Shown in pieces: positions 6,425-39,185 of a stretch of DNA of 64,000 nt. The notes under the pieces are model-generated. The model had not been told where the DNA came from. It saw only the letters and a list, made by a program, of their open reading frames with translations, and searched no databases. The position numbers were made by a program, and so were the translations under genes. Source of the DNA: Patescibacteria group bacterium (GTDB taxonomy: Bacteria > Patescibacteriota > JABMPQ01 > JBFLZX01); NCBI GenBank assembly GCA_040756075.1, contig JBFLZX010000001.1, positions 28,787 to 92,786 on the forward strand. Reading direction: 5' to 3'. Position 1 is the stretch's first letter. Each line of letters starts with the position of its first letter.

Positions 6425-6467
6425 TAAATTTTTTATTACCCACAGACAGAAATTTTTAATTAATAAA

Positions 6468-12069: not shown

Positions 12070-13769
12070 AAAAAGACCCAAGTAAAATACTAATCTTAAT
12101 AATCATCATAGGAGCTATAGTAAGAATTTTAGGCGTAAATTTTGGGCTCCCTTTTATATATCACAATGATGAAAAGATAATTGTGAATTATGCGCTTGCT
12201 TACGGCGCAGGAGACCTGAACCCACATTTCTTTAAGATTCCGCCTTTATTGTCTTATTTTCTATTTTTTCTTTACGGGATTTTTTATATAGCGGGGAAAA
12301 TTTTAGGCATTTTTAATTCTATTAGTGAATTCGGATACCTTTTTTTAAATAATCCAACCAGTTTTTTTATTATTGGTAGATTTTTTGCTGGAGTTATTCC
12401 AGGCATTCTGTCAATTCCCCTGATATTTTATTTAGCAGAAAGAGCATTTTCAAGACGCGTTGCAATATTTGCGTCACTTTTCTTATCGCTTAATTTTTTA
12501 CACGTCAGAGATTCTCACTATATTTATTGCGATATACTCTTAGTTTTTTTTATCCTCCTATTTTTTATATGGCTTTTTAAAATTTTTGAGAAAAATCGAA
12601 CAAGCGACTATTTTGTCACTGCATTAATTATCGGTATAGCTACATCAATAAAATATAACGGAATACTATTATTTATTCCTTTTCTACTTATAATTTTACG
12701 CAATAAAGCCTTTTTTAAAGATAGCAATATAGTTTTGTTTAAAAGATTATTTGGAATAGGGTTATTTTATCCCATCGCTTTATTCTTTAGCAATCCGTAT
12801 ATGTTTCTAGATTATAAATTTTTCTTTAATGATATTTCAAGAATGCCTTTTTATAATCCCGGATTTTTTTATCACTTAAAAGTATCTATTGTTGGAGGAT
12901 GCGGCCTATTAATATTTCTTTTTTCTATAGGCGGCTTTACAATAGCCATTTTTAAGAAACATTTTTTTGCTATTACACTTGGTTTCTTTGGCTTAATTTA
13001 TTATTTTATTGTTGCTAGGCTTAGCCAATCGGCAGAGAGATATATTCTTCCACTTATTCCCGCTATATTATTATTTGCGGCATATTTTCTTGATTACATT
13101 ATTCAGAAAGTAAAAGCAGTTAAAGCGCAATTAATTCTCTCTGTTTTATTTTGTATAATATTACTTACACCTTCTTTGTTTAAAATATATAAATCTGATA
13201 AGCTTTTTACTATGGATGATACGCGTACACAAGCTTATGAATGGATTAAGAAAAACATTCCATTTAATACTAAGATCGCTGTCGATTCAACCGGGTCAAT
13301 ATACCCAGTATTAAGACAATCAAAGGAATTTATTGATATCAATGTAAAAAATTTCAAAAAAGAAAAATTTCGGAAACCAGAAGGTTCTTTAGATTATAAA
13401 ATAGAACTTATAAAAAATAATCCTTATTATGATAATACTTATAGGATTTATTATTTAAAAAAAAGCATAGGCCAAAAAGGATTCTTTTTATCATTCCCTG
13501 AAGTAGAGTTAAATATAGATCAAATCAAGACTAAAGGGATTGAATATATAGTTGTTTCGACTTTACTTATTAGCAATACCGGAAAAAAATTTTTACCAGT
13601 ACTAGAAAAAAATACTAATTTAATTAAAGAATTCTCTCCATATAATAAATCTATTTCTAAATTAATTCCTGATGAGCTTACTGTTTTACCTGCTGCAGCT
13701 TTTACATACCGAGAGTTAAAGGATAGAGACAGGTTTGGTCCAGTAATTAGAATCTATAAGTTTAAGTAG
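12066..13769 (+). CDS. Polytopic membrane glycosyltransferase, GT-C fold (GT39/PMT_2, ArnT-like)
   Basis: Multi-TM protein. A DE-type motif in the first extracytoplasmic loop (HNDEKII) is typical of the ArnT/PMT family. There is a C-terminal soluble domain. Confidence 0.6.
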   Translation: MKKDPSKILILIIIIGAIVRILGVNFGLPFIYHNDEKIIVNYALAYGAGDLNPHFFKIPPLLSYFLFFLYGIFYIAGKILGIFNSISEFGYLFLNNPTSFFIIGRFFAGVIPGILSIPLIFYLAERAFSRRVAIFASLFLSLNFLHVRDSHYIYCDILLVFFILLFFIWLFKIFEKNRTSDYFVTALIIGIATSIKYNGILLFIPFLLIILRNKAFFKDSNIVLFKRLFGIGLFYPIALFFSNPYMFLDYKFFFNDISRMPFYNPGFFYHLKVSIVGGCGLLIFLFSIGGFTIAIFKKHFFAITLGFFGLIYYFIVARLSQSAERYILPLIPAILLFAAYFLDYIIQKVKAVKAQLILSVLFCIILLTPSLFKIYKSDKLFTMDDTRTQAYEWIKKNIPFNTKIAVDSTGSIYPVLRQSKEFIDINVKNFKKEKFRKPEGSLDYKIELIKNNPYYDNTYRIYYLKKSIGQKGFFLSFPEVELNIDQIKTKGIEYIVVSTLLISNTGKKFLPVLEKNTNLIKEFSPYNKSISKLIPDELTVLPAAAFTYRELKDRDRFGPVIRIYKFK

Positions 13770-14555: not shown

Positions 14556-15323
14556 ATGCATAAAAAAACACAATCTACAAAAATAGTTTTGAAAAAAAAT
14601 AAATGGGATAGTTTATTTTTTGGCATAGATATCGCAGACATGTTTTTTCATGGATTTAATTTGCCATCGGAATCAGAAATAAAATTATTATTAGATAGAG
14701 CGTTAAAAAAAGCCTATAATTTTGGTTTTAAATATTTAGTTTTCACGCTTCCCGAAAAATTTATTTTTTTAAGCAGTATCCTTAAGAAACAAGGTTTTAA
14801 GCTTATAGATTTATGTTTTGATTTAAAGTTAGTTATTAATAAAAAGATACCTTTCAAAATATCGTCCGATATCAATATTATTAAAACCTGTATTAGCGAT
14901 ATTCCTTTCATTGAGAGGATAGCGAGTTATTCTTTTAGATTGAGCAGGTTTTATAATCTTAAATTTTCGAATAAAAAATTATCCGACCTTTACCATATTA
15001 TTTGGATTAGAAATTTACTTAAGAGTAGACGGGCTATTTTATTTACGGCTAAATTAGAAGATAGAGTGTGTGGTTTTCTTGCGCTTACATTAAATCGTCA
15101 AGATTGTTCCGGAAGGATAAGCCTTATTGCTACCAAAAAAGATATGCAGGGTATGGGGGTCGGAAATGCATTAGTTTATTATGCTATTAATTGGGCTAGA
15201 AAAAAAAGATTTAAAACGATATATGTAAAAACACAGAAGAATAATCTTAAAGCGCTAAAATTATATAAAAAACATAATTTTAAGATTTTTAATGTAGAAC
15301 GCAAGTATTCTCTTTATTTATGA
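14556..15323 (+). CDS. GNAT-family N-acetyltransferase (WecD-like amino-sugar acetyltransferase architecture)
   Basis: The C-terminus carries a GNAT motif A (MQGMGVGNALVYYAINWARKK). The two-domain layout resembles TDP-fucosamine acetyltransferase. Confidence 0.6.
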   Translation: MHKKTQSTKIVLKKNKWDSLFFGIDIADMFFHGFNLPSESEIKLLLDRALKKAYNFGFKYLVFTLPEKFIFLSSILKKQGFKLIDLCFDLKLVINKKIPFKISSDINIIKTCISDIPFIERIASYSFRLSRFYNLKFSNKKLSDLYHIIWIRNLLKSRRAILFTAKLEDRVCGFLALTLNRQDCSGRISLIATKKDMQGMGVGNALVYYAINWARKKRFKTIYVKTQKNNLKALKLYKKHNFKIFNVERKYSLYL

Positions 15324-16993
15324 TAATGAAAAAATTGATTTTAATATCTTTTTTTATTTTATTTACTATTTTATGTATAGGGACCATTCTTCAAACTTCT
15401 CCTATATGCGATGAAGTCGCGCATCATTTAGCCAGCGGATATTCCTATTTAAAGACAAAAGATTTCAGGATGAATCCAGCCACACCTGCATTTTCAAGGG
15501 AATTAATTGCTGCGTCGCTTTTAGTCCTTAATTTAAGGTTGCCAACGGATCATCCTTCTTGGATTAATAATGATAGCCCTATATTTGGAAGGCTTTTTTT
15601 ATATGAATACAATGATAATCCTGAAAGAATAGTTTTGTTGGCCCGTTTGTCTGTTATGCTTCAATCTATTATTCTTGCATTTTTGGTTTACGTTTGGGCC
15701 AGAAAGGTACACGGTGTAAACGCTGCCGTATTTTCCGTTTTTCTATACTTGTTTTCTCCTGCAATCATAGGAAATTCTACTATAGCTATGGCAGATATCT
15801 CTGTAAGCCTTTTTATATTCTTAACGATTTTTCAGTTTTGGCTTTTTTTACAAAAGAAAACTATAGCTGGCTTAATTTTTACAGGAATATTTTTTGGATT
15901 AGCACAGTCTTCTAAGCATACTGCAATAATACTATTTCCGCTTTTTATTATTTTAGGAATAGTCTATGCTATGAATTCAAGTAATAACAAGGGAGATATG
16001 TTATGGGATATGTGGAAAAAAATAGTTTTAATATGGGGGATTGGTTTTTTTACGTTATGGGCAACTTATTTTTTTGAATTCAAGCCATTGCTTTTAAATG
16101 TTAGTGATATAAACGAAAAAGTAGTATATATTCAGAGATTCTTATCATCGATACCTTTTTTAGACCATAAATATATTATAGATAAAGTAATTTATTTTGC
16201 TAAAAATGTTCCTATTCCGCTGAGCTCTTTTTTTATTTCATTATTTGGAGTATTACATCAATCAAGTATTGGGCAAGGCGTATTCTTTATGGGAGAGCAT
16301 ACTATCAGCGGATCAAGGATTTATTATATCGTCGATTATTTAATAAAGACTCCTATACCACTTTTAATTTTTATTATTCTTTCGATCTTTTTAACACTAT
16401 TTAAGAGGCTATTTAAAACAAAAATCTTAACAAATTGGTTTATTATTTTGCCGATATTTCTTATTTTTGTCGCGTCATCATATTCAAAAATCCAAGGAGG
16501 AATAAGATATCTTTTGCCGATATATCCTTTTCTATTTGTATGGCTAGGAAATATCATAACCGTTAAATTCAACCCATTTAGAAATTTATTTTATAAAATC
16601 ATTATTTTAATAATATGTTTATGGTATTTTTGGATTGCATTAAAGACATTTCCGGATTATCTATGTTATTTTAATGAAGCTGTAGGTGGATTAAATGGCT
16701 TCGGTCATAAAATAACACATGATTGTGATTGGGGGCAAGATCTTAAAGCGCTTGGTAAATTTTATAAAAAAAATGATCTTAATGAAATTACGCTTTCCTA
16801 TTTTGGTACGGCAGACCCATCTTTTTACGGAATTAATTATAAAGAGTTATCTAAGGAAGAGCAAGACGTACCGGGAAAGAAAGTTTATGCGATAAGCATA
16901 CGTTTTCTTGATTCTGCGAAATGGACAAGAAATATTCCGCCATCTGCAAAAGCAGGCCATTCTATATTCATTTATGACTTTAGAGTTAATTGA
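15320..16993 (+). CDS. Polytopic membrane glycosyltransferase, GT-C fold (GT39/PMT_2, ArnT-like)
   Basis: DE motif near the N-terminus (ICDEVAHHLASGYSY). Multiple TM helices and a C-terminal soluble domain. Confidence 0.65.
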   Translation: MIMKKLILISFFILFTILCIGTILQTSPICDEVAHHLASGYSYLKTKDFRMNPATPAFSRELIAASLLVLNLRLPTDHPSWINNDSPIFGRLFLYEYNDNPERIVLLARLSVMLQSIILAFLVYVWARKVHGVNAAVFSVFLYLFSPAIIGNSTIAMADISVSLFIFLTIFQFWLFLQKKTIAGLIFTGIFFGLAQSSKHTAIILFPLFIILGIVYAMNSSNNKGDMLWDMWKKIVLIWGIGFFTLWATYFFEFKPLLLNVSDINEKVVYIQRFLSSIPFLDHKYIIDKVIYFAKNVPIPLSSFFISLFGVLHQSSIGQGVFFMGEHTISGSRIYYIVDYLIKTPIPLLIFIILSIFLTLFKRLFKTKILTNWFIILPIFLIFVASSYSKIQGGIRYLLPIYPFLFVWLGNIITVKFNPFRNLFYKIIILIICLWYFWIALKTFPDYLCYFNEAVGGLNGFGHKITHDCDWGQDLKALGKFYKKNDLNEITLSYFGTADPSFYGINYKELSKEEQDVPGKKVYAISIRFLDSAKWTRNIPPSAKAGHSIFIYDFRVN

Positions 16994-17083
16994 GGTTATT
17001 TCATTTAGTTAGCTGAAGTATAATAATTATTAGTTTAAGTTGTTATGATGCTAATAATAGTTAATGATAGCTAAATATAGTTA

Positions 17084-17111
17084 TTGACAATTGATAAGCA
17101 TATGGTATACT
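17084..17111 (+). promoter_or_regulatory. Sigma70-like promoter (TTGACA-16 bp-TATACT) driving the long downstream operon
   Basis: TTGACA at 17084..17089, a 16-nt spacer, and TATACT at 17106..17111. It lies in the only sizeable intergenic gap (16994..17164), about 55 nt upstream of the ATG at 17165. Confidence 0.5.
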
Positions 17112-17164
17112 TATAACATATATTCTCCAAGTATTTTCTTAGTTAATATATAATTATTTTATAT

Positions 17165-19318
17165 ATGAATAATATAAAAAATATAATATTTCTTTCTATT
17201 GATGCACTGCGTTTTGATATGTTAAGATATGCAGGTGGCTACCAATTAAATACTACGCCTTCCATCGACTTTCTATGCAAAAATGGCATATATTGTGCTA
17301 ATGCATTTACTCCGGGAAATCCTACTCAGTTCGGATTTCCTTCTATATTTACCTCAACTATGCCTTTAGATTTTGGTTCATATAATGAAGGGATAAAGAA
17401 TAGGCCTATTTCTTTCCCCGAGATTCTTAAGAAAAAAGGTATTAAGACATGTGGCATGACTAATAATGTGAATATAAATAATTTCTTTTATTATGACCGC
17501 GGGTTTGATGAATTCTATGAATTTTTTGATATTGAACTCTTTTGGAATAGTATGAAGAAGAATTATTTTTATTACTACCGAGAATTGTATAAAAAAAATA
17601 TAATTAATAAACAAGCTTATTATGAGATATTAAGATTCTGGTTAAAAAAATGTTTTTTATATATGATGGATTTTTGTAATAAGAGAGATAATGCAATAGA
17701 AATCCAGTGTGATTATATTGCAGAATGGCACGATTATGAAATCCTCAAAAAAGCAATCTCAAGCAAAATTAAAAATTTAATAAATAATTTCGGGAATTAC
17801 CATAATGATAATTTCGATGATCTCTTAAATAAAAATTTATATGATTTTCTCGGTATTGTATCAACTAAGCCCGCAATAGGTAAGTTTATTAATCATATTG
17901 ATAAGAATATTGCAAAATTATTAAAGAATATTTATATCCAATTTGATGAAAGGTATTCGAGAAAGATTAAAGGAGATAAAATTGCAAAGAATATTATTAA
18001 TTGGATAGATAAAAATTCAATTAATCCATTTTTTATTTGGGCGCATTTTATGGATTTGCATGATGAAAATTATATATCAAAATCTTTTGGTTTACCCCAC
18101 AAGCTCGCTTCTTTTATAGCAAAAAGAATTTTTTTACGGGATACTTATAGAGGAAACCTGCGTTATGATTTTTCTCTAAACTTTGTAGATAGGGCGGTAG
18201 GTTGTATTATTAAGTATTTAAGAAATAAGGATCTTTTGGATAGTTCTTTAATAGTCATCTGTGGAGATCATGGGCATAGGACGGGTAAGCCTTATAGGAA
18301 AGGTTCTTCCGCCGCCGCTTTCTATGAAGAGGATATAAAAGTACCCTTAATATTTTATAACCCTAAATTCAGACCAAAGAGAATTGAAGATCTTTGTTGT
18401 TTAAGAGATATAGCTCCTAGTATTTTTTCATTTCTAGGTATTGAACAAGTGGCTGAATTTGAAGGAAAATCTGTCATTGATAGATCTGTTAAAGAGAGAG
18501 ATTATGTTATATTGGAAAATAACTTTAGAGGGCCTTGCGATTTCGACAATAAGCCCATATATCTTGCCGTCAGAACAGATAAATATAAGTATGTGCATCG
18601 CGAATCGATTAGTTTTAACGATCCATGGTCAAAGCATAAACAAGAGTTATATAATCTTAATGATGATCCAAAAGAATATAATAATTTATACGATCATCCC
18701 GAATACGTTAATGTTTTAAATAAGTTAGAAAAAATAGCAGTACAGAGAATTCAGGACATAAGATCATCGCATGGTAAGAATAATTTAGGGCATACCGATG
18801 GCAAAGGTTTTGTTTTATGGTTAACAGGATTATCTGGATCAGGGAAAACTACATACGCAAATAGGCTTTATACGCTTTTTGGCATTAAAAATTTTAAGAT
18901 ATTGGATGGAGATGAATTTAGGCAAATGTTTAGTGCAGATTTAGGTTATACATATGAAGATAGAATTTTGAATATCAAGCGAATTGCTTATTATGCGCAT
19001 ATTATATCGAGCTTAGGAATAAATGTCATAGTTGCTAATATAGCACCTTTTTATGAGGCCCGGGATTTTATAAGGCAGAATATTCATAATTATATTCAGG
19101 TTTATCTTAAAGCCGATATAGAGGTATTAAAGATTAGGGACCCTAAAGGATTATATGCTAGATCGAAAGCAAGAAAAATCGGAAATGTTATCGGGATACA
19201 TGAGCCATATCAAGAACCAAGAACTCCTGATGTCGTTATTGATACAGGACAGGAGAGCGTCGAGGATGGCGTTCAGAAAATAATTACTTATCTACGCAAT
19301 AAAAAGATAATTCAATAG
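17165..19318 (+). CDS. Fusion of an alkaline-phosphatase-superfamily 'sulfatase-like' domain with an adenylyl-sulfate (APS) kinase
   Basis: N-terminal roughly 520 aa: sulfatase/AP fold (LSIDALRFDML, TPGNPTQ, CGDHGH) but without a C/S-x-P-x-R formylglycine motif. C-terminal roughly 180 aa: CysC-like (LWLTGLSGSGKTT Walker A plus an APS-kinase-like body). Confidence 0.65.
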   Translation: MNNIKNIIFLSIDALRFDMLRYAGGYQLNTTPSIDFLCKNGIYCANAFTPGNPTQFGFPSIFTSTMPLDFGSYNEGIKNRPISFPEILKKKGIKTCGMTNNVNINNFFYYDRGFDEFYEFFDIELFWNSMKKNYFYYYRELYKKNIINKQAYYEILRFWLKKCFLYMMDFCNKRDNAIEIQCDYIAEWHDYEILKKAISSKIKNLINNFGNYHNDNFDDLLNKNLYDFLGIVSTKPAIGKFINHIDKNIAKLLKNIYIQFDERYSRKIKGDKIAKNIINWIDKNSINPFFIWAHFMDLHDENYISKSFGLPHKLASFIAKRIFLRDTYRGNLRYDFSLNFVDRAVGCIIKYLRNKDLLDSSLIVICGDHGHRTGKPYRKGSSAAAFYEEDIKVPLIFYNPKFRPKRIEDLCCLRDIAPSIFSFLGIEQVAEFEGKSVIDRSVKERDYVILENNFRGPCDFDNKPIYLAVRTDKYKYVHRESISFNDPWSKHKQELYNLNDDPKEYNNLYDHPEYVNVLNKLEKIAVQRIQDIRSSHGKNNLGHTDGKGFVLWLTGLSGSGKTTYANRLYTLFGIKNFKILDGDEFRQMFSADLGYTYEDRILNIKRIAYYAHIISSLGINVIVANIAPFYEARDFIRQNIHNYIQVYLKADIEVLKIRDPKGLYARSKARKIGNVIGIHEPYQEPRTPDVVIDTGQESVEDGVQKIITYLRNKKIIQ

Positions 19319-19320
19319 TT

Positions 19321-20421
19321 ATGATGAATAAGAAAAATAGAATTCAAATTAATTTTGATCATTTATTATACTTAAGGGGTATTAATGAGGGTTCGTTAAA
19401 TCCTTTAAAAGGGTTTTGTAATAGGTTGGATTACGAATCTATTCTTAAGACGATGCGTTTTAAAAATGGTTATCCTTGGCCTATCCCAATAACTTTAGAA
19501 ATAGACGAGGAACAAGCAAAATCTATCAAGAAATTTAATGAAGCAGAATTAATTCAGGAAGATGGGATTAATTGCGCTATTTTAATGATAACAGATATAT
19601 TTAAGATTGATTTACAAAGATATATCAAAGAAATATTTAAAACAGATTCATTGAATCATCCAGGAGTAAAGAAAGAGATAAAAAAACCCCTATGGAGAAT
19701 AGCAGGAGACATTAGATTTAAACGCTCATTTAAACCCATAAGCAGTAAATATTATCAGAAGCCCGATGAGGTCATAAAAGAAATAAAGAAGAGGGGATGG
19801 AATACTGTTGCAGGATTTCAAACAAGGAATCCAATTCATCGAGCACATGAGCATCTTCAGCGTATCGCAATGGAGGTATGTGATGGTTTGCTAATTCAAC
19901 CGCTTATAGGGGCTAGAAAAAATGATGATTTTTCTTTTCCGGCTATCTTGGAATCATATAATATCATGATAAACCATTTTTATCCTAGAGATAAAGTGAT
20001 TTTTACCTCCTTAGAGCTGCCTATGCATTACGCAGGTCCACGGGAAGCCATTTTACATGCTTTAATCAGAAAAAATTATGGCTGTACGCATTTTATAGTA
20101 GGAAGGGATCATGCTGGGGTTGGTAATTTTTATGGTAGATACGAAGCGCAAGAAATTGCAAATAGCTTTAAAGACTTAGGTATAGAAATACTTAGATTAA
20201 AAAGCCCTTTTTTCTGTAAAAAATGTGCCAAGGTAGTATCTGAAAATACATGCACACATTATTATTCAGATAAAGATTCTGTTTGCGAAATAAACGGTTC
20301 AAATATACGAAATATGATAAATAATAATAAAATCCCACCTAAATTTATAATGAGGAAAGAAATAAGTAAAATGCTTTTTGAGTATAAGCAAAAAAAAATG
20401 TTATTAAATGAATGGAGATGA
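19321..20421 (+). CDS. sat: Sulfate adenylyltransferase (ATP sulfurylase)
   Basis: Canonical QTRNPIHRAHE motif and GRDHAGVG motif. Confidence 0.8.
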   Translation: MMNKKNRIQINFDHLLYLRGINEGSLNPLKGFCNRLDYESILKTMRFKNGYPWPIPITLEIDEEQAKSIKKFNEAELIQEDGINCAILMITDIFKIDLQRYIKEIFKTDSLNHPGVKKEIKKPLWRIAGDIRFKRSFKPISSKYYQKPDEVIKEIKKRGWNTVAGFQTRNPIHRAHEHLQRIAMEVCDGLLIQPLIGARKNDDFSFPAILESYNIMINHFYPRDKVIFTSLELPMHYAGPREAILHALIRKNYGCTHFIVGRDHAGVGNFYGRYEAQEIANSFKDLGIEILRLKSPFFCKKCAKVVSENTCTHYYSDKDSVCEINGSNIRNMINNNKIPPKFIMRKEISKMLFEYKQKKMLLNEWR

Positions 20422-20422
20422 T

Positions 20423-21385
20423 ATGTTTAAGATTATTGTAACCTTAGGCCCCTCAATATTGAAAGGGGATACATTAAAAATGCTTCCAAGAGAGCATCCT
20501 TATATATTTAGACTTAATGGTTCGCATATATCATATAATTATGCCAGAGATTTGGTTAAAAAAATACGTAAAGCAGTAAAAGAAGCGGTTATTTTACTTG
20601 ATTTGCCGGGTAATAAGGTAAGAACAACCAACTTGGAGAGGCCTATTAATCTTATGGTTGGTAAAAAATTTTGCTTAACCGACGATATGATAAATCATAA
20701 GATATTTTTTGATAGGGTTAAAGTTGGAGATGTTATTAGGGCCCATGATAGTTTATTAAAATTTGAGGTTATTAATAAGAAGAAGAAGTCCGTAAGTTTT
20801 ATATCCCATTCAAACGGGATTCTTAATAAAAATAAAGGTCTTCATCTTTGCGGATTAACCGATGGTATAGATTTTTTAACAGAACAAGATAAGGTTCTTT
20901 TAGAGATAGCAAAGAATCTTAGGATAGATTGTGTTGGAGTTTCGTATGTTAGGGATAAGCAAGATATTCTTCTTATTAGGGATTATATGCGTAAGAAAGA
21001 TTTTATTCCTGATATTTTTGTTAAGATCGAGACAAAAAGAGCTATAGAAAATCTTAATTCTATTTTTAGCGAAGCGAATAATTTTATTCTTGATAGAGGG
21101 GATCTTTCAAGTGAAGTAGGTATTGAGAATATTTCATTGTTTCAACGTAAGATAATCGTTGAGGCGAAGAAAAAGAATCGTAATCTTTTTCTGGCAACAC
21201 AGTTTTTAAAAAGCATGATTCATAATCCATTGCCATTTATAGCAGAAGTAAATGATTTGCATAATGTGCTTGCAGATGGAATATCTGGATTGCAGCTTTC
21301 TGATGAGACTGCGATAGGAAAATATCCCCTAGAAGCGATTAATACAATAATAGCCATAAGAAAGAATATAGAAAAGTTACTATAA
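20423..21385 (+). CDS. Pyruvate-kinase-family protein comprising the catalytic barrel only, with no C-terminal regulatory domain
   Basis: PK signatures IIVTLGPS, FRLNGSH, ILLDLPGNKVRT, KIETK, DRGDLS and ATQFLKSM. I prefer the start at 20423 (GGAGA RBS, directly after the sat stop) over 20408. Confidence 0.6.
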   Translation: MFKIIVTLGPSILKGDTLKMLPREHPYIFRLNGSHISYNYARDLVKKIRKAVKEAVILLDLPGNKVRTTNLERPINLMVGKKFCLTDDMINHKIFFDRVKVGDVIRAHDSLLKFEVINKKKKSVSFISHSNGILNKNKGLHLCGLTDGIDFLTEQDKVLLEIAKNLRIDCVGVSYVRDKQDILLIRDYMRKKDFIPDIFVKIETKRAIENLNSIFSEANNFILDRGDLSSEVGIENISLFQRKIIVEAKKKNRNLFLATQFLKSMIHNPLPFIAEVNDLHNVLADGISGLQLSDETAIGKYPLEAINTIIAIRKNIEKLL

Positions 21386-21401
21386 AAAATAAGGAGTAAA
21401 T

Positions 21402-21632
21402 ATGGAAATCAAAGAAGGCGGAGTTTATACTTTACAAGAAGTCCAAAAGTTATTAAAGGTAAGCCCAAGTACATCGTTAAGGCTTGTTAAAAATGGTTTT
21501 ATTCATGCGGCCAAGGTAGGAAAGCAATATCGTATTCTCGGAAAAGAACTTTTACGTCTTTTATCTCCACAGCTTGAAGATAAAGTTGGTAAACTTTACA
21601 ATAAAGGCAGGGCTTGGTTGTACGAGGATTAA
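21402..21632 (+). CDS. Small excisionase/MerR-superfamily helix-turn-helix DNA-binding protein
   Basis: YTLQEVQKLLKVSPSTSLRLVKNGFIHAAKVGKQYRI fits the Xis-type HTH_17 pattern. An AAGGAG RBS lies upstream. Confidence 0.55.
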   Translation: MEIKEGGVYTLQEVQKLLKVSPSTSLRLVKNGFIHAAKVGKQYRILGKELLRLLSPQLEDKVGKLYNKGRAWLYED

Positions 21633-21648
21633 AAAAAAGGAGATATTG

Positions 21649-23055
21649 ATGAAGAGCAGAATAAAATCTTTAATTATAAGTAAAAATTCTTGCATCAAAG
21701 ATGCTATAAAGGGCATAATGAAAAATGGTTATGGAGTTGTTTTTATAGTAGACGAAAACGGTCGATTTATTAGTGTTATAAACGATGGCGATATCAGAAG
21801 GGGTATTCTTAAAGGGAAGCAGTTGGCGGATAATGTTATGACGATATCTTCAGATACGCCTTTTTATGTGTTAGATAATATGTCGAAAGAAGAGATAGCG
21901 GGGTTCATCAATAAGAAAAATAATTTAAAAAATAAAATTCAATATGGGGGTACCCTTAAGGTACCAGTTTTAGATAAGAATAAGTTAATTACCAATGTTT
22001 TGTTTATTTCCATAAATGACAGCGGAGTTTGCATTATTGATCATGACTGTAGAAGCCCTAATAAAATGCGAGAAATTAAAAAAAATAAAAATATATTAGT
22101 TACCGGCGGAGCAGGCTATCTTGGTTCAATTCTATGCAAGAAACTACTAGATAATGATTATAAGGTCAAGGTATTAGATAATCTGATGTATGGTGATCAT
22201 GGGATAAGGCAATTTCTTAATAATCCTAATTTTAAGCTCATCAAGGGAGATATTAGAAATATTCAAATCGTTGTAGAATCTATAAAAGACGTTGATGCAG
22301 TTATTCATCTTGCTGCAATAGTAGGGGATCCTGCTACTACCAAATTTCCCCAAGAGTCTATCGATGTAAATTATTTAGCAACTAAAGCAATTGTTGAAGT
22401 TTGTAAATATTACCAGGTCAATAGATTTATATTTGCTTCTACTTGTAGTGTTTATGGTTATCAATCCGAAGAGGATAGCGGATTAACAATTAATTCTAAG
22501 CTGAACCCGCTTTCTTTATATGCAAAGATGAAGCTTGAGTCAGAGAAAGCCATTCTTTCATTAGCTGATGATTATTTTTCACCCTTAGTTTTAAGAATGG
22601 CAACTCTATACGGTTTATCTCCTAGGATGAGATTTGATTTAGCGGTTAATTTCCTTTCTGCCGAAGCCGTAATTAAAAAGGAAATAGTAATTTTTGGCGG
22701 CAGTCAATGGAGGCCATTCCTGCATGTAGAGGATGCCGCAAATGCTTATGTTAAATGCCTCGAATTACCTTTTAGGAAAGTACGGAAAAAAATATTAAAT
22801 TTAGGCCAAAATAATCAAAATTATCAGATGCTTCGCGTAGGAAGAATGATAAAGAAGCTAATCCCGGGAACGAAATTAGGGATATCTAAAAAAGAAGTTG
22901 ATTCGAGAAATTATAAAGTATTATTTGATGATACCGTAAAGAACATAGATTTTCATGCCGATTATAAAGTATCAGACGGAATTGCAGAAATTAGAGATCG
23001 CATCTTAGAGGGAGATTTTATTGATTATAGAGATAAAAAATATAGGAATGTTTGA
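21649..23055 (+). CDS. CBS-domain pair fused to an NAD-dependent sugar-nucleotide epimerase/dehydratase (paralogue of the N-domain of 9889..12069)
   Basis: N-terminus: CBS-like (GVVFIVDENGRFISVINDGDIRRGI). C-terminus: ILVTGGAGYLGS and YAKMK. It shares the ATLYG.S.RMRFDLA.N and QWRPFLHVEDAA blocks with the 9889 ORF. The start is taken at the ATG 21649, which follows an AAGGAG RBS. Confidence 0.65.
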   Translation: MKSRIKSLIISKNSCIKDAIKGIMKNGYGVVFIVDENGRFISVINDGDIRRGILKGKQLADNVMTISSDTPFYVLDNMSKEEIAGFINKKNNLKNKIQYGGTLKVPVLDKNKLITNVLFISINDSGVCIIDHDCRSPNKMREIKKNKNILVTGGAGYLGSILCKKLLDNDYKVKVLDNLMYGDHGIRQFLNNPNFKLIKGDIRNIQIVVESIKDVDAVIHLAAIVGDPATTKFPQESIDVNYLATKAIVEVCKYYQVNRFIFASTCSVYGYQSEEDSGLTINSKLNPLSLYAKMKLESEKAILSLADDYFSPLVLRMATLYGLSPRMRFDLAVNFLSAEAVIKKEIVIFGGSQWRPFLHVEDAANAYVKCLELPFRKVRKKILNLGQNNQNYQMLRVGRMIKKLIPGTKLGISKKEVDSRNYKVLFDDTVKNIDFHADYKVSDGIAEIRDRILEGDFIDYRDKKYRNV

Positions 23056-23534: not shown

Positions 23535-24719
23535 ATGATAAATAAGAGAATAATTCCTTATGGAAAACAGTGGTTATTTAAAGAAGACATTAATTCAGTT
23601 GCTAATGTTTTAAGGTCCGATTGGATTACTCAGGGGCCTAAAATTAAAGCCTTTGAAGATGCAATTTGTAACTATTGTGGTTGTAAATATGCAGTAGTGG
23701 TTTCTTCCGGAACAGCCGCATTGCATATTGCCTGTTTGGCAGCAGGGCTTAAAAAAGGAGATCAGGCTATCACAACTCCGTTAACTTTTTTGGCTACAGC
23801 AAATTCTGTATTATACAGCGGGGCAGAAGTAATTTTTGCAGATATAGATTATGCTACCGGTAATATTGATACGAGACAGATTGAGAAAAAAATAACAAGA
23901 AAAACTAAAGTATTGTTGCCGGTAGATTTTGCAGGACTGCCTTGTGACTTATCAGAAATAAAAAAAATTGCAAAACGATATAAACTTTTGGTGATAGAAG
24001 ATTCTTGTCATGCTTTAGGCGCAACCTATAAAAATTCAAAGATAGGCGATTGTAATTATTCCGATATGACAATATTTAGTTTTCATCCTGTAAAACATAT
24101 TACAACAGGAGAAGGCGGGGCCATCACAACAAATTCTAAGAAGTTATATAATAGGCTTATTGCGCTAAGGAACCATGGGATGTGTAAGAAAGCGCAAACA
24201 TTAAAGAAAGAGGGTTCTTGGTATTACGAGATGAACTATCTTGGTTTTAATTATAGAATTACCGATTTACAATCTGTTTTAGGATTAAGTCAAATTAATA
24301 AATTACCTTTATTCATAAAGCGTAGAAATTTGATTGCCAATAGATATGACCAAGCATTCTTTTGTTTTAGAGATCTTCTAACTTTACCATCGATAAATTA
24401 TGGAGATAGAACACATGCTTGGCATTTGTATACGCTTAGATTAAACATGGCTAAAAAATATATTTCGCGTAGACAATTATTTGAATTGTTGCATAAAGAA
24501 GGAGTAAGAGTGCAAGTTCATTATATACCTATAACGCGGCAACCTTATTACCGAGAAAAAGGTTTTAAGAGCTCACTCTTTCCAAATGCTGAAAAATATT
24601 ATGAGAATGTTATTTCATTGCCAATCTATCCTAAAATGGACAATTCGGATATTGATTATGTTATAGGCGTTGTAAGCAAGATAATAGATAAATATTGTAG
24701 ACAAGGAGGCAGTAAGTGA
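23535..24719 (+). CDS. DegT/DnrJ/EryC1-family PLP-dependent sugar aminotransferase
   Basis: WITQGPKIKAFE, SSGTAALHIA and SFHPVKHITTGEGG are typical of this family. Confidence 0.75.
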   Translation: MINKRIIPYGKQWLFKEDINSVANVLRSDWITQGPKIKAFEDAICNYCGCKYAVVVSSGTAALHIACLAAGLKKGDQAITTPLTFLATANSVLYSGAEVIFADIDYATGNIDTRQIEKKITRKTKVLLPVDFAGLPCDLSEIKKIAKRYKLLVIEDSCHALGATYKNSKIGDCNYSDMTIFSFHPVKHITTGEGGAITTNSKKLYNRLIALRNHGMCKKAQTLKKEGSWYYEMNYLGFNYRITDLQSVLGLSQINKLPLFIKRRNLIANRYDQAFFCFRDLLTLPSINYGDRTHAWHLYTLRLNMAKKYISRRQLFELLHKEGVRVQVHYIPITRQPYYREKGFKSSLFPNAEKYYENVISLPIYPKMDNSDIDYVIGVVSKIIDKYCRQGGSK

Positions 24720-26185
24720 GGGTACTTTTAGCCTATCTTAGTGATACTGGCATAGGAGAAATACCCATAGGTTTATCTATAATTCAGGCTTGCTTGAGAC
24801 AGGCAGGGCATAGTACGTGCATCTTTGATACCACCTTTTTTAAACAAACTGATATAAGGAGTATTAATGAGAACTTGGGTGTGCATAAACCTGTTAACTT
24901 AGAAGATTATGGGGTAAGCCTTACTTATAGCGACATCGATGATGAGTTTTTATCTGTAGTAAAAAATTTTAATCCGGATCTTATAGGCTTTTTTACTACT
25001 AGTTACAATTTTTTTCAAGTATTAAATATGATTAAGTTGATTCGTCGGAATAATATAAATACTCAAGTAATACTAGGGGGTCCTCATACGACAGTTGCAC
25101 CCGAAGAGAGTATTAATTATCCGGAAATTGATATGCTTTGCGTGGGAGAAGGAGAAGAGGCAATTATCGAATTATGCAAGAAGATGCAAGTATCAAATAG
25201 GATCGATAATATAGAAAATATTTGGATTAAGCATGACGGCAGGGTCTACAGAAATCAACCAAGGCCTTTTATATGCATGGATAAGGTTCCCTGTCCTGAT
25301 GCAGATAGTTTTTCCGATATGCATTTTTTTAAACCTTTTTCAGGTAAAGTATATCGTATGGGGCATATAGAAATAAGCAGAGGTTGTCCTTTTAGTTGCA
25401 CATATTGCATTAATGCATATATGCGTAACTTGTATAAGGCTAAAAATGAAGGTAATTATCATCGTGAAAAGAGCATAGATAAAGCTATATCGGACATAAA
25501 AATATTGGTTAAGAGGCACAATCTTGAAATGTTGCGTTTCTGGGATGAAACTTTTTTATTTATGAAGGAGTCTAGATTGAATGAATTTAGTAAGAGATAT
25601 AAAAAAGATATTAATCTCCCTTTTATAATTTCAACACACCCGGCTACTATTAATGAGAAAAGAATAGGGATTATGAAGGATATGGGTTGTGTTGCTATTA
25701 GCGTTGGAATAGAGAGCGGAAACGACCGTATCCGTAGGGCGCTTTTAGGTCGTAAAATTAGCAACGAACAAATAATTAGAGCTTTTGATATTATTAAGTC
25801 ATCTGGAATAAGGGTTACTTCGTATAACATGATTGGCTTACCGTTTGAAACACGTAAAAATATCTTTGAGACCATAGACTTAAATCGAAGAGTTAAGGTG
25901 GATACAGCTGGCCCAAGTTTTTTTTATCCTTATCCGGGGACTAAATTAAGAGAAGTTTGTTTAGAGAGTAATTTTATAGATTCAGAGCTTAAACCAGCAG
26001 AGAATAATGTTGACACCATACTCAATATGCCACAAATTAAGCATAAGGAATTAAAAGGACTGCATAAGACTTTTACTCTTTATATAAAATCACCTAAATG
26101 GTTATTTCCTCTGATTAAGCTTTGCGAGTTAGATAACTATATATCTAATAGAATATTCAAGTTTTTAATCAGAAGATATTGCTAA
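24716..26185 (+). CDS. B12-binding radical SAM protein
   Basis: N-terminal B12-binding-like domain. Radical SAM motif SRGCPFSCTYCIN. Confidence 0.75.
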   Translation: MRVLLAYLSDTGIGEIPIGLSIIQACLRQAGHSTCIFDTTFFKQTDIRSINENLGVHKPVNLEDYGVSLTYSDIDDEFLSVVKNFNPDLIGFFTTSYNFFQVLNMIKLIRRNNINTQVILGGPHTTVAPEESINYPEIDMLCVGEGEEAIIELCKKMQVSNRIDNIENIWIKHDGRVYRNQPRPFICMDKVPCPDADSFSDMHFFKPFSGKVYRMGHIEISRGCPFSCTYCINAYMRNLYKAKNEGNYHREKSIDKAISDIKILVKRHNLEMLRFWDETFLFMKESRLNEFSKRYKKDINLPFIISTHPATINEKRIGIMKDMGCVAISVGIESGNDRIRRALLGRKISNEQIIRAFDIIKSSGIRVTSYNMIGLPFETRKNIFETIDLNRRVKVDTAGPSFFYPYPGTKLREVCLESNFIDSELKPAENNVDTILNMPQIKHKELKGLHKTFTLYIKSPKWLFPLIKLCELDNYISNRIFKFLIRRYC

Positions 26186-26201: not shown

Positions 26202-27269
26202 ATGTTTAAATTTAACAAAACAGTAGAAATTGATGGCGTGAAAATTGGTAGCGGACAACCTTGTTACATAGTAGCTGATGTTAGCGCTAATCACAATTCA
26301 GATTTTAAAACTGCAAAAAGATTTATAAGGTTAGCCAAAGACATAGGTCTAAATGCAATTAAATTTCAAACATACACAGTTGAAAAGTATCTTTCAAAAA
26401 AAATTAAGCGGGAAGACGGATATCATTTTAATAAATCTTTTCAAAAAGCAAAGAAATATGAATTACCTTATGAATGGCATCAAGAATTATTTGATTATGC
26501 TAAGGATTTAGGGGTTACAATTTTTTCTACTATTGATGATATCGATACCATTGATTTTTTAAATAAATTAAATACGCCAGCCTTTAAGGTGTCTTCTCCC
26601 GATTTAAATTTTTTACCAATGATAGAAGAGGCTGCCAAGACTCTTAAGCCACTTATTTTATCAACAGGCATAGGAGATATATCTAGAATTAAAGAGGCAA
26701 TTGAATCGGTAGCTTCCTACGGGAATGATCAGTTGATACTATTGCATTGTGTTTCTATGTACCCCTCGCATTTTTCGGAAATGAATATTCGCTGCATAAC
26801 TAACTTACAGGATACTTTTGGTCTACCTGTAGGGTTATCTGACCATACAGCGGCCAGCCAAGATCCTTATTCTGTAGCTTTGGGAGCTGTGGCTTTGGGT
26901 GCAAATATGATAGAAAAACATATTACATTTAGCAGATCCCAAGATGGCCCGGATCACATATTTTCTATGGAACCCGATGAATTTTCCAAATTAGTTACTT
27001 ATATAAGGAATCTTGAAGAATCGTTGGGTAATGGAAGGAAGTGTCCTGTCTCCAGAGAAATTAAAGTGAGCATAGAGATAACAAAGAGTATCCATACAAC
27101 AAGAGATATAAGAGCTGGAGAAATAATCAAGGAGTCAGATCTGAGAATATTAAGACCAGGTTACGGAATTGAACCTAAATATCTAGGAGATGTTATAGGT
27201 ATGAAAGCAAAAGTTGATATAAAAGATTCAGAGGCGCTAGAGTGGAATTTATTAGAGAAAAATAAATAA
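26202..27269 (+). CDS. Nonulosonic acid synthase (NeuB/PseI/LegI/SpsE family), PEP-dependent
   Basis: The NeuB-family N-terminal barrel (GSGQPCYIVADVSANHN...AIKFQTY) is followed by a C-terminal SAF/antifreeze-like domain. Confidence 0.75.
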   Translation: MFKFNKTVEIDGVKIGSGQPCYIVADVSANHNSDFKTAKRFIRLAKDIGLNAIKFQTYTVEKYLSKKIKREDGYHFNKSFQKAKKYELPYEWHQELFDYAKDLGVTIFSTIDDIDTIDFLNKLNTPAFKVSSPDLNFLPMIEEAAKTLKPLILSTGIGDISRIKEAIESVASYGNDQLILLHCVSMYPSHFSEMNIRCITNLQDTFGLPVGLSDHTAASQDPYSVALGAVALGANMIEKHITFSRSQDGPDHIFSMEPDEFSKLVTYIRNLEESLGNGRKCPVSREIKVSIEITKSIHTTRDIRAGEIIKESDLRILRPGYGIEPKYLGDVIGMKAKVDIKDSEALEWNLLEKNK

Positions 27270-28060
27270 TGAATATTAAAGTAAATAGAATAGGCTGTAT
27301 TATTCAAGCACGAATGAATTCACATAGGCTTTTTGGTAAGGTATTGGTAAAAATTTGCGGGAAATCTATATTAGAGCACATTATTGAACGAATAAAAGAA
27401 TCGAAATATATTCAAGAAATTATTATTGCAACTTCTTCTTCTGGTATAAATGACCCAATAAGAGACCTCGGCAATAAAATTAATATACCTGTTTTTAGCG
27501 GCAGCGAGGACGATGTATTAAGTAGATATATAGAGGTTAGTAAAACATATAATTTTAGAATTATAGTTCGGGTTACAGCGGATGATCCGCTTATTGACAT
27601 ACAAGAAGCGGATAAGATGATAAAAATACTTGAAGAAAAAAAGCTAGACTATGTAACAAATTCAGATATCAGCTTGGATGATTATAATACAGAACTTCCA
27701 GCCGGGTTCCAGGTGGAAGTTTTATCCAGCGATGCTCTATTAAGCTTGGAAGATAAAGATCTGACACAATTGCACAGAGAACATGTAACTCTTTATATCG
27801 AGCAATACGCAGAGAAATATAATATTAGATTTATTAAACCGCGAGAGAACATACGTTACAAGGGATTACGTTTAACAGTAGATACGCCAGAAGATCTAGG
27901 ATTAATGAATAAGATATACCTTGAGTTATATAAAGGTAGGCCTATTCTTAATGAAAAAGTTGTAGAGTTAATTAAAAAGAATCCTAGCTTATCTTTATTA
28001 AACAGTTCTATAAAAACAAATTACAGTTATTTAGACGGAATAAGGGTTAAAAAATTATGA
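27269..28060 (+). CDS. Cytidylyltransferase, SpsF/PseF-like (CMP-nonulosonic acid synthetase family)
   Basis: GCIIQARMNSHRLFGKVL in a GT-A-like nucleotidyltransferase fold. It is the classic SpsE-SpsF neighbour of the NeuB-like gene. Confidence 0.6.
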   Translation: MNIKVNRIGCIIQARMNSHRLFGKVLVKICGKSILEHIIERIKESKYIQEIIIATSSSGINDPIRDLGNKINIPVFSGSEDDVLSRYIEVSKTYNFRIIVRVTADDPLIDIQEADKMIKILEEKKLDYVTNSDISLDDYNTELPAGFQVEVLSSDALLSLEDKDLTQLHREHVTLYIEQYAEKYNIRFIKPRENIRYKGLRLTVDTPEDLGLMNKIYLELYKGRPILNEKVVELIKKNPSLSLLNSSIKTNYSYLDGIRVKKL

Positions 28061-37608: not shown

Positions 37609-37669
37609 TTTTTATCCAGTTGTTGAAATATTAAGAATAATAATAGTGTTTGGAAAGGAGTTTTGGATT

Positions 37670-38395: not shown

Positions 38396-38420
38396 ACGAA
38401 ACCACATCGAAGGAGAAAAA

Positions 38421-39176: not shown

Positions 39177-39185
39177 AAGGAGAAA

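Follow-up and report, generated by a model that had tools for sequence, protein, structure and literature searches.

A pyruvate kinase core without a C-terminal domain in a Patescibacteria sulfate-activation cassette: a probable PEP-fuelled ATP regenerator for PAPS synthesis

Canonical bacterial pyruvate kinases (PKs), such as PykF from E. coli (PDB 1PKY/4YNG), combine a TIM barrel (A domain) and a cap (B domain) with a C-terminal alpha/beta domain (PF02887), which normally contributes to the tetramer interface. The protein described here, which we call the PK core, is encoded in a 64-kb stretch of Patescibacteria DNA (the window). It has the same A+B fold at ~30% identity, and its catalytic and ligand residues are identical to those of canonical PKs, but it lacks the C-terminal domain and therefore any known allosteric site and the C-C tetramer interface. 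Its B domain is slightly shorter, it bears the family motifs DLPGNK[VI]R and [FY]LATQFLK, and its gene context is a sulfate-activation cassette rather than glycolysis. With respect to the K+-independent 'DLPGxK' PKs (447-493 aa), Leu113 and Lys117 are common to the PK core and the long proteins P0174 and P0186. The short PK of the Bacillus cereus group (NF005234/PRK06739, profile length 352) is likewise annotated without a C-terminal domain, but the PK core scored 142.6 bits against NF005234 (cut-off 564) and is thus not a member of the Bacillus type, for which we know of no link to sulfate activation.

The three activities of the cassette recur in engineered in vitro PAPS cascades (ATP sulfurylase, APS kinase and PK with PEP, with or without pyrophosphatase), which are combined with the stated aim of regenerating ATP and relieving the APS kinase-ADP-APS dead-end complex (PMC9885120). 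Without the PK/PEP module, PAPS synthesis in vitro almost fails, as APS kinase is trapped in this complex (PMC9885120). These cascades are man-made and use commercial full-length PK; in the cassette the enzymes come together naturally, as an operon here and as one fused polypeptide in relatives. Helper or successive enzymes that pull an unfavourable equilibrium are also fused in the ATP sulfurylase-inorganic pyrophosphatase proteins of stramenopiles and haptophytes and in the bifunctional ATP sulfurylase-APS kinase PAPS synthases (PMC2275785). The pyrophosphatase fusions are a precedent for helper enzymes joined to sulfate activation (PMC2275785) and in this resemble the PK-fused sulfate-activation enzymes described below, but their helper removes PPi, whereas the PK core would remove ADP and regenerate ATP. 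The literature that we searched reported no PK partner of sulfate-activation enzymes, did not describe a PK gene as part of a sulfate-activation operon, nor C-domain-less PKs, and yielded no characterised PK without a C domain; one match to 'truncated pyruvate kinase' was an engineered deletion mutant.

Domain structure and active site of the PK core

Pfam aligned PF00224 (PK barrel) to residues 8-311 (E 5.3e-57), corresponding to profile positions 5-328 of 328, and returned no match to PK_C (PF02887, the domain with the allosteric site and the tetramer interface). The chain stops at the equivalent of PykF ~334-339 of 470, and there is no PK_C remnant 3' of the gene, as the next gene, encoding an HTH_17 protein, begins at 21402, 17 nt on. 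NCBIfam PK models aligned only over profile positions ~4-340 of ~476 and all scored below their cut-offs (235.3 bits for the PK equivalog TIGR01064, cut-off 306.4), as expected for a protein in which one third of the model is missing. These results bear out the preliminary description of a catalytic-core-only PK homologue devoid of the C-terminal allosteric domain. We rejected a truncation artefact or pseudogene, since family members are ~315-330 aa throughout and no PK_C remnant lies downstream. An HpcH/HpaI aldolase or PEP-mutase identity was rejected as well, there being no such Pfam match in the PK core; weak PF03328 co-matches occur in a few of its homologues.

The best Foldseek matches of the AF2 model (pLDDT 93.4) were all PKs; query TM-scores lay at 0.85-0.92 for E. 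coli PykF, PKM2 and rabbit PK, and the superposition on these three covers their A and B domains only. The B domain, placed on the basis of the beta strands at 80-139 of the model, spans approximately residues 74-158 (325-aa numbering; 20627..20881, + strand) and is ~15-20 residues shorter than in E. coli PykF, the alignment gaps falling there. It retains Lys143-Gly144 of the nucleotide site (K143 in 179/188 and G144 in 188/188 family members). Residues were assessed by role: Arg/Asn bind the PEP phosphate, Lys, Glu and Asp serve phosphoryl transfer and Mg2+, Thr is the proton donor, and the Ser-x-Glu element and the nucleotide-site Arg/Lys were also included. In the alignment with PykF, R35/N37/H40 correspond to R32/N34/H37; D65, R72 and K143 to D66, R73 and K156; K206/E208 and D232 to K220/E222 and D246; and T264 and S298/E300 to T278 and S312/E314. 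No catalytic Lys or Glu is missing (K206/E208, D232 and T264 are all in place), and every PK motif quoted earlier was recovered (GPS, FRLNGSH, VKIETK, DRGDL and LATQFLKSM). An alignment of 34 sequences shows no variation at the active-site residues, and about 179-186 of the 188 family members (~98%) have them. Judged by these alignments, the product of 20423..21385 is a true PK A+B-domain core with all catalytic and ligand residues present, and it is predicted to be catalytically competent, converting PEP and ADP (possibly also other NDPs) to pyruvate and ATP.

Lys117 co-varying with Leu113 (rabbit numbering) is a signature of K+-independent PKs (PMC4374775). The PK core carries both residues within DLPGNKVR, in which D65-L66-P67-G68-N69-K70-V71-R72 correspond to rabbit D112...R119, and family members retain them almost throughout (K70 in 184/188, L66 in 187/188). 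Positions 114 (Pro) and 120 (Thr) depart from the commonest Gln/hydrophobic pattern. By this signature the PK core is predicted to be K+-independent.

The sulfate-activation cassette

The PK-core ORF lies on the + strand, stops at 21385 and has two in-frame ATGs, at 20408 (325 aa) and 20423 (320 aa). We consider 20423 the likelier start, because the family consensus opens with MFxIIVT, NCBI protein P0001 is 320 aa long, a GGAG lies 5 nt upstream of this ATG, and one base separates it from the ATP-sulfurylase (Sat) stop codon. Of the earlier assignment of 325 aa to 20423-21385 the coordinates stand, giving a core-only PK (A barrel and B cap) of 320 aa, and the length belongs to the alternative start at 20408. 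The GGAG ribosome-binding site (20414..20417, + strand) sits within the end of the Sat gene, whose TGA stop codon was read at 20419-20421, an arrangement that predicts translational coupling of the PK gene to Sat.

The PK gene is the last of three tightly packed genes, behind an alkaline-phosphatase (AP)-fold domain-APS kinase fusion and ATP sulfurylase, with spacings of 2 nt (CysC stop to Sat) and 1 nt (Sat stop to PK ATG). Sat (19321..20421, + strand; PUA_2 and ATP-sulfurylase domains, PF14306 and PF01747, the latter at E 8.7e-81) passed NF003166 with 409 bits (cut-off 387), and the APS kinase (CysC) domain (residues ~543-717 of the fusion ORF, 18791..19318, + strand; PF01583, E 1.6e-38) passed TIGR00455 with 154.6 bits (cut-off 138.7). 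On these profile scores the window encodes a genuine ATP sulfurylase and APS kinase, which together form a predicted sulfate-activation (PAPS) module. The only sizeable intergenic gap upstream of the cassette (16994-17164) contains a promoter-like site, TTGACA-16-TATACT with an extended TG (17084..17111, + strand), which has the top score within 16800-21800 (11/12 matches plus TG). Promoter-like sites overall are no more numerous than in shuffles, and this one is only suggestive of a promoter driving the cassette. Directly 3' of the PK gene lies the small HTH_17 protein (21402..21632, + strand; PF12728, E 1.9e-12), whose inclusion in the cassette is uncertain. Further downstream are sugar-nucleotide modification genes, so that the setting between sulfation and sugar-modification genes given in the preliminary description holds, and PEP-consuming NeuB is encoded at 26202-27269. 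Pfam scans of ~54 window ORFs, which took in every ORF of at least 100 aa clear of a longer gene except 60287-61252 and 62762-63898, revealed no second PK, no classical sulfotransferase domain (Sulfotransfer_1/2/3 type), no sulfate transporter or permease and no pAp phosphatase.

Residues 1-537 of the 717-aa fusion (17165..18775, + strand) form an alkaline-phosphatase-superfamily ('sulfatase-fold') domain matched by Pfam Sulfatase and SGSH_C. In an alignment to S1 sulfatases, its T53 (NPTQF) falls on the column of the CxxxR formylglycine Cys, a position held by Thr or Ser in all 14 AP-fold homologues examined from PK loci; most homologues have no transmembrane segment. The domain is a candidate head-group (sulfo) transferase or pAp-handling enzyme, and we found no description of AP-fold PAPS-dependent sulfotransferases in the literature searched.

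A clade of short PKs and its gene neighbours

We defined the short PK clade as proteins of ~315-330 aa with DLPGNK[VI]R and [FY]LATQFLK and with Sat and/or CysC adjacent or fused. The PK core fits this definition, having both motifs, Sat directly upstream and CysC before Sat, and is 41-66% identical to clade members. A rough neighbour-joining tree placed it inside a clade of 62 representatives, all but one of which (61/62) are short or fused and so lack the canonical architecture; by this placement the PK core belongs to a distinct C-domain-less PK clade. Members are spread over many bacterial phyla and DPANN archaea, with the same neighbours in large-genome Planctomycetota, Nitrospina, Lachnospiraceae, Campylobacterota and archaea, and by motif the family was detected in only 134 of 185,579 species genomes. 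A tblastn search of 72,556 plasmids and 50,697 phage records returned canonical PKs alone (~30% identity), none from the short clade, on which ground a mobile-element origin was rejected.

Synteny was assessed in 80 GTDB species genomes chosen solely by two PK peptide motifs. Sat was found in the locus in 69 of these, always on the same strand as PK (69/69); it lay at most 3 kb from PK in 67 loci and directly upstream in 37, against a chance expectation that we estimate at about 0.2 loci per 80. CysC was present in 56 of the 80 loci, and where at least 3 kb was available on both flanks, Sat lay within 3 kb in 47/53. Examples from Nitrospina, Uhrbacteria and Planctomycetes were checked by hand. 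About 10% of family loci have no Sat or CysC within 10 kb, among them one (L012) in which the short PK adjoins a TIR protein. Sulfotransferase genes occur in some related loci (L001, with tblastn matches in L021, L027, L028, L032, L039 and L046). NeuB is encoded in only 13 of 84 short-PK loci, and this PEP-consuming enzyme was rejected as a conserved PK partner.

Fusions join PK to both sulfate-activation enzymes. PK-CysC proteins are by far the commonest (10 representatives at 50% identity, as well as L028 and L046), and the reverse order, CysC-PK, is found in P0024, whose gene adjoins a Sulfotransfer_1 gene; the two domain orders imply independent fusion events. P0177 is a Sat-PK fusion and P0183 a full-length PK-Sat fusion.

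ATP regeneration for PAPS synthesis and its alternatives

We conclude that the PK core is probably a K+-independent, unregulated PK that provides PEP-fuelled ATP regeneration for PAPS synthesis in glycan sulfation. In the proposed mechanism, one transcript would carry its gene together with those of ATP sulfurylase and APS kinase, and their translation would be coupled. ATP sulfurylase would convert ATP and sulfate to APS and PPi, a thermodynamically unfavourable step, and APS kinase would convert APS to PAPS with formation of ADP, which the PK core would at once turn into ATP by spending PEP. The local ATP/ADP ratio would be held high and the APS kinase-ADP-APS dead-end complex averted, so that PAPS synthesis for glycan sulfation would effectively be PEP-driven. 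Loss of the C domain would abolish allosteric control (of the FBP/AMP/sugar-phosphate type), leaving the PK active whenever the cassette is expressed. We infer the nucleotide preference of the PK core, its absent regulation and its physiological coupling to PAPS synthesis, and likewise its selective advantage, since the cell's housekeeping PK could in principle fill this role too. ATP supply to the PAPS module, one of the roles first suggested for the protein, is strongly supported by the Sat/CysC synteny across phyla and by the recurrent fusions with both enzymes.

The loci without Sat or CysC bear on the breadth of this role. PK is fused to NTP_transf_3 (MobA-like) nucleotidyltransferases in P0145, P0152, P0159, L060, L064 and L078, and in the Planctomycetota with such fusions there is no CysC nearby, which implies that the role there may be broader (general NTP regeneration) or different. 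In L008, a phosphonate/PEP-mutase cluster without Sat or CysC, the short PK stands between an AP-fold protein and CDP-OH_P_transf and NTP_transf_3 genes, with PEP mutase-NTP transferase and Ppd further on, and in L003 a CDP-alcohol phosphatidyltransferase follows PK. PK accepts several NDPs. All of this would suit a general NDP-to-NTP regenerator for 'activated head-group donor' cassettes, which recharges ATP, CTP or GTP for the nucleotidyltransferases and kinases that decorate glycans with sulfate, phosphonate or phospho-alcohols and has the PAPS cassette only as its commonest partner. We consider this unlikely, given Sat within 3 kb in 67/80 loci, the predominance of PK-CysC fusions, and Sat and CysC as the partners in the window; it widens, and does not contradict, ATP regeneration for PAPS. 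The nucleotidyltransferase fusions, together with CDP-OH_P_transf and Glyphos_transf-like neighbours, the APS-kinase-like genes of L085 in a Cj1415-1418-like cluster, and the side activities of PK on glycolate, fluoride and hydroxylamine, could also be read as signs of a PK-fold kinase acting on another substrate (a 2-hydroxy acid, sugar or glycan intermediate, with ATP or PEP as donor). Its phosphorylated product would then be nucleotide-activated and transferred, in parallel with the kinase/nucleotidyltransferase/3'-kinase logic of the C. jejuni phosphoramidate pathway. Such a kinase is quite improbable, since ~98% of the family retain the ADP-, PEP- and Mg-binding residues as well as Thr264, the proton donor to the enolate, Sat and CysC of the window pass their NCBIfam cut-offs and sulfate activation needs no phosphorylated organic substrate, and no one sugar pathway co-varies with PK, NeuB included. 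The PEP-dependent sugar or glycan phosphotransferase of the preliminary description was rejected as the main reading on the same grounds, with PK substrate residues conserved in ~98% of the 188 members and linkage to Sat and CysC instead of a sugar pathway.

That the PK core is instead an ordinary, perhaps the only, glycolytic PK, which lost its regulatory domain by genome reduction and lies beside sulfation genes by chance, could draw on its source, a MAG from a group with reduced genomes, and on the lack of another PK among the scanned ORFs of the 64-kb window. We find it very improbable, because the same clade has the same neighbours in large-genome bacteria and in archaea, the CysC and Sat fusions speak against chance adjacency, and a family in 134 of 185,579 species genomes fits an accessory rather than a core gene; the earlier view that a glycolytic PK is unlikely is reasonable for an accessory clade co-inherited with the cassette. 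It is scarcely credible that the protein is a pseudo-enzyme that only scaffolds or regulates a PAPS-synthesis complex: the C domain is lost and ~4 of the 188 family members have substitutions at several catalytic positions, but all catalytic residues are kept in the PK core and in ~98% of the family. A more far-reaching version of ATP regeneration for PAPS, which we put forward as doubtful, makes the PK core a physical subunit of a PEP-driven 'PAPS synthasome' and the Thr-nucleophile AP-fold domain an unrecognised transferase class. The PK core would bind to APS kinase and ATP sulfurylase, an arrangement hinted at by the natural fusions, and would channel ADP and ATP; the AP-fold domain would move sulfate from nucleotide-activated donors onto glycans, or phosphonate or phosphoramidate head groups in relatives, which would account for a window devoid of a classical sulfotransferase.

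Short PK genes carry the annotation 'pyruvate kinase', and metabolic reconstructions of reduced genomes would take them as a sign of glycolytic capacity, perhaps wrongly. If ATP regeneration for PAPS is correct, pyruvate kinase can function as a minimal, unregulated A+B core, and a self-contained unit for PAPS supply, with ATP regeneration built in, has spread horizontally through many bacteria and DPANN archaea. Such a unit would be nature's equivalent of the enzyme mixture assembled in biotechnology to make PAPS, a costly sulfate donor, and enzymatic sulfation could draw on it for a compact PK and for PK-APS kinase fusions that already exist. The surface chemistry of Patescibacteria is almost unknown, and finding the cassette in metagenomic data would point to glycan gene clusters for sulfated surface polymers, those of Patescibacteria included.

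Architecture and active site of the short pyruvate kinase

The pyruvate kinase (PK) core is encoded on the + strand by an ORF that ends at position 21385 and has two in-frame ATG codons, at 20408 (325 aa) and 20423 (320 aa). Translation probably starts at 20423, because the resulting N-terminus fits the family consensus MFxIIVT and the 320-aa length is that of the NCBI copy of the protein (P0001); this ATG lies 1 base past the ATP sulfurylase stop codon and has GGAG 5 nt before it. The coordinates in the preliminary description thus stand, but they give the 320-aa form rather than the 325 aa it quoted; residues are numbered here on the 325-aa form. Pfam returned a single match, to the PK barrel (PF00224, E 5.3e-57, profile positions 5-328 of 328), and none to the C-terminal domain PK_C, while alignments to the NCBIfam PK models were limited to the first ~340 of ~476 positions, with scores under the cut-offs. 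The next gene begins at 21402, and therefore no remnant of a C domain lies downstream. With all the PK motifs it had quoted also present, the initial recognition of a core-only PK was correct.

Residues 8-320 align with residues 5-334 of the 470 in E. coli PykF (phmmer against the PDB, E 5e-39). An AF2 model built on a 34-sequence alignment (mean pLDDT 93.4, pTM 0.90) consists of a barrel with a beta-rich insert at residues ~74-158, and Foldseek matched it in the PDB to pyruvate kinases exclusively, with TM-scores of 0.85-0.92 on the query and ~0.6 on the target, so that the model spans the A and B domains of PKs, without C. The full set of PEP-, Mg2+-, nucleotide-binding and proton-transfer residues is present: R35, N37 and H40 (PykF R32, N34 and H37), D65 and R72 (D66 and R73), K143 (K156), K206 and E208 (K220 and E222), D232 (D246), T264 (T278), and S298 and E300 (S312 and E314), each conserved in roughly 179-186 of 188 family sequences. 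The segment at the K+ site, D-L-P-G-N-K-V-R, has the residues that mark K+-independent PKs, namely Leu and Lys at rabbit positions 113 and 117, respectively (PMC4374775). Separately, about 4 of the 188 sequences have several catalytic positions substituted together (R35Q, D65H, K206Q, E208V/L/I, D232H) and may form a small inactive sub-lineage.

Linkage and fusion to sulfate-activation enzymes

Together with the two genes upstream, the PK core (20423-21385, +; PF00224) forms a compact three-gene unit with spacers of 2 nt and 1 nt: an alkaline-phosphatase-superfamily domain ('sulfatase-fold', here 'AP-fold') fused to APS kinase (17165-19318, +; 717 aa, TIGR00455 above cut-off), followed by ATP sulfurylase (19321-20421, +; NF003166 above cut-off). 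The sole sizeable gap upstream, 16994-17164, contains the region's best promoter-like match, TTGACA-16-TATACT with TG, a match that is no more than suggestive.

A word-indexed search found 662 homologues, the best 120 of which are barrel-only proteins of ~314-346 aa, except for P0024 (508 aa), which also has an APS kinase domain. We examined Pfam-annotated gene contexts for four relatives: the order is APS kinase, ATP sulfurylase, PK in Nitrospina and a Planctomycetes MAG, and ATP sulfurylase, PK in Uhrbacteria, while on the P0024 contig a Sulfotransfer_1 gene precedes the APS kinase-PK fusion and ATP sulfurylase lies 3.4 kb downstream. For an unbiased survey, one genome per GTDB species was searched with the PK motifs [LIM]DLPGNK[VI]R and [VIL][FY]LATQFLK as the sole criterion, yielding 134 relatives in 185,579 genomes, of which 80 loci were retained. 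They come from Campylobacterota, Lachnospiraceae/Oscillospiraceae, Planctomycetota, Omnitrophota, Nitrospinota, Bdellovibrionota, Elusimicrobia, Lentisphaerae, Margulisiibacteriota, Bacteroidota and gamma- and delta-proteobacteria, and, among archaea, from Woesearchaeota. Using tblastn with the window's own ATP sulfurylase (Sat) and APS kinase (CysC), we located Sat in 69/80 loci, on the same strand as PK in all 69; it lies within 3 kb in 67/80 and directly upstream (gap <150 nt) in 37/80. CysC is present in 56/80. By our estimate, chance would give ~0.2/80 for a gene with one copy per 2-5 Mb genome. Where the sequence extended at least 3 kb to each side (53 loci), Sat lies within 3 kb in 47 and Sat or CysC is present in 51; neither gene was found in 9/80 loci, most of these nine being short contigs, with L008 and L012 the two informative cases. 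Plasmid and phage collections held canonical PKs only and no PK of the short clade.

When 1.84 billion representatives were searched with a HMMER profile, the top ranks, above ~260 bits, went to ~60 short or fused proteins, and canonical PKs (450-490 aa) predominated below about 257 bits. Domain mapping of the longer top matches revealed PK-APS kinase (ten 50%-identity representatives and GTDB loci L028 and L046), the reverse order in P0024, ATP sulfurylase-PK (P0177, 725 aa), PK-NTP_transf_3 (P0145, P0152, P0159 and the Planctomycetota loci L060, 9744-11612, L064, 9956-11713, and L078), and two PK barrels followed by adenylate kinase (P0158, 1051 aa), possibly an AMP-to-ADP-to-ATP regeneration fusion. 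PK and APS kinase are joined in both domain orders, which implies that these fusions arose independently. A full-length PK fused to ATP sulfurylase (P0183, 859 aa) carries PK_C, and the link to sulfate activation is therefore not restricted to the C-domain-less clade. A rough neighbour-joining tree without support values places the window protein inside a clade of 62 representatives, one alone of canonical length, nested among long K+-independent 'DLPGxK' PKs. We take the short PKs to be a C-domain-less, K+-independent clade dedicated to sulfate-activation cassettes.

Recurrent neighbours and the surrounding glycan island

A Na_H_Exchanger-family (PF00999) membrane protein of ~420 aa adjoins the short PK in 30/80 loci (including L047, L048, L053, L055, L063 and L072-L074; for example L074, 7627-8895); in 21 of the 30, mostly from Lachnospiraceae/Oscillospiraceae, its gene separates Sat from PK, and in Campylobacter it is just downstream of PK. 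This protein, which has no equivalent in the window, may be the cassette's transporter for sulfate or another ion. At least 8 PK loci encode PHP-domain proteins and 7 encode TauE/SafE permeases; radical-SAM/SPASM proteins are also recurrent.

At least 18 PK loci encode AP-fold proteins, and the Firmicutes order (AP-fold, CysC, Sat, membrane protein, PK) agrees with that of the window's AP-fold-CysC fusion. The window domain (17165-18775, +), the N-terminal 537 aa of ORF 17165-19318, has Thr (NPT53QF) at the formylglycine-Cys position of sulfatases; Thr or Ser occupies it in 14/14 homologues from PK loci, most of which lack a transmembrane segment. Phosphotransferases such as LtaS and EptA have Thr at that position. 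A stand-alone homologue in Thermodesulfobacteriota (L085, 756-8638) comes last in the order Sulfotransfer_1-like, 1012-aa PPDK_N/PEP-utilizers, Peptidase_C26 GATase, NTP_transferase, APS-kinase-like, AP-fold, a set that resembles, in a distant phylum, the Campylobacter jejuni Cj1415-Cj1418 phosphoramidate-donor pathway. Others follow a phosphonate gene set (PEP mutase/Ppd/ADH; L086) or adjoin an NTP_transf_3-methyltransferase (L087). These contexts raise the idea that the AP-fold domain could be the head-group transferase, perhaps a (sulfo) transferase of a new type.

To judge from its sequence, the 64-kb window, from a Patescibacteria MAG, is a single co-directional, very large glycan-decoration/biosynthesis island: every listed ORF of at least 100 aa not overlapping a longer gene is on the + strand (~55 plausible genes), GC is ~31% and GC skew is positive in all 2-kb bins. 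It encodes GT-C/PMT_2, GT2 and GT4 glycosyltransferases, including at least three of the PMT_2-type GT-C group (3490-5007, 12066-13769 and 15320-16993, all +), a YfhO-like protein (6390-8732, +), a weak GT87 match (94-1296, +), sugar-nucleotide enzymes (SDR, DegT, cupin), NeuB, three CTP_transf_3 cytidylyltransferases, a flippase and a carbamoyltransferase, among others. A scan of ~54 ORFs, which covered all those of at least 100 aa outside longer genes except 60287-61252 and 62762-63898, revealed neither a Sulfotransfer_* domain nor a sulfate permease or pAp phosphatase. Five separate B12-binding radical SAM enzymes (2031-3428, 24716-26185, 28057-29508, 39973-41478 and 49428-50879, all +) are unusually dense for 64 kb and suggest multiple sugar C-methylations or other radical modifications. 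A 726-aa protein (9889-12069, +) fuses an SDR 4,6-dehydratase/epimerase domain to a DegT/DnrJ/EryC1 aminotransferase domain, and thus carries two successive steps of amino-sugar synthesis on one polypeptide. At 37646-39968, an HpcH/HpaI-type aldolase (38421-39176) lies between two CTP_transf_3 cytidylyltransferases, separate from a NeuB/CTP_transf_3 pair at 26202-28060; the aldolase group may represent a second route to keto-deoxy or nonulosonic sugars, one that relies on an aldolase. Also amid the glycan cluster are a gene for an RtcB RNA ligase (52015-53505) and, directly after it, a thymidylate-kinase-like gene (53507-54130).

A proposed ADP-recycling role in PAPS synthesis

ATP sulfurylase catalyzes a thermodynamically unfavourable reaction and is subject to strong product inhibition. 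APS kinase becomes trapped in a dead-end complex with APS and its own product, ADP, and PAPS was 'practically missing' from a published cascade lacking its PK/PEP ATP-regeneration module (PMC9885120). We read the PK core as playing the same helper role as that in vitro module: it would turn ADP from APS kinase back into ATP at the expense of PEP, close to the ATP-requiring enzymes and, lacking the C domain, presumably free of the usual allosteric control. Algal ATP sulfurylase-pyrophosphatase fusions (PMC2275785) are a natural precedent for an attached helper enzyme that pulls the sulfate-activation pathway. An ADP-recycling helper of PAPS synthesis is the most economical reading of the conserved operon and the fusions; the PK core's activity, specificity, oligomeric state and coupling to PAPS synthesis are inferences.

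Of the two functions first put forward for this protein, ATP supply to the PAPS module is favoured by the conserved operon with Sat/CysC and the fusions, and a sugar kinase or phosphotransferase found no support; action on a different phospho-acceptor has a low probability. It is also improbable that the PK core is the genome's only, housekeeping PK, or that it is a pseudo-enzyme, for which a missing catalytic Lys/Glu had been named as the sign: both K206 and E208 are in place in the alignment. The main rival, suggested by the loci that follow, is that the family may regenerate NTPs for various activated head-group donors. In an Omnitrophota locus (L008, 7801-18693), the short PK belongs to a phosphonate-decoration cluster from which Sat and CysC are absent, in the order membrane-anchored AP-fold protein, PK, CDP-alcohol phosphatidyltransferase, NTP_transf_3, EamA, rSAM/SPASM, PEP mutase/NTP-transferase fusion and Ppd (a phosphonopyruvate decarboxylase-like TPP enzyme). 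The Planctomycetota operon runs PK-NTP_transf_3 fusion, Sat, AP-fold protein without a nearby CysC; in L064 the PK is fused to a MobA-like NTP_transf_3, ATP sulfurylase and a 388-aa soluble AP-fold protein follow, and the surrounding 10 kb gave no APS kinase match. In an uncultured Pseudomonadales MAG (L012, 9758-12339), a 404-aa PK with an N-terminal extension precedes a TIR-domain protein, with neither Sat nor CysC within 10 kb. NTP regeneration of this wider kind really broadens, rather than displaces, the ADP-recycling explanation.

A literature search returned no description of the PK core or its sulfate-activation cassette. Although the chemistry is familiar, neither the natural cassette nor its breadth or fusions seem to have been described before, and all of them are directly testable and useful.
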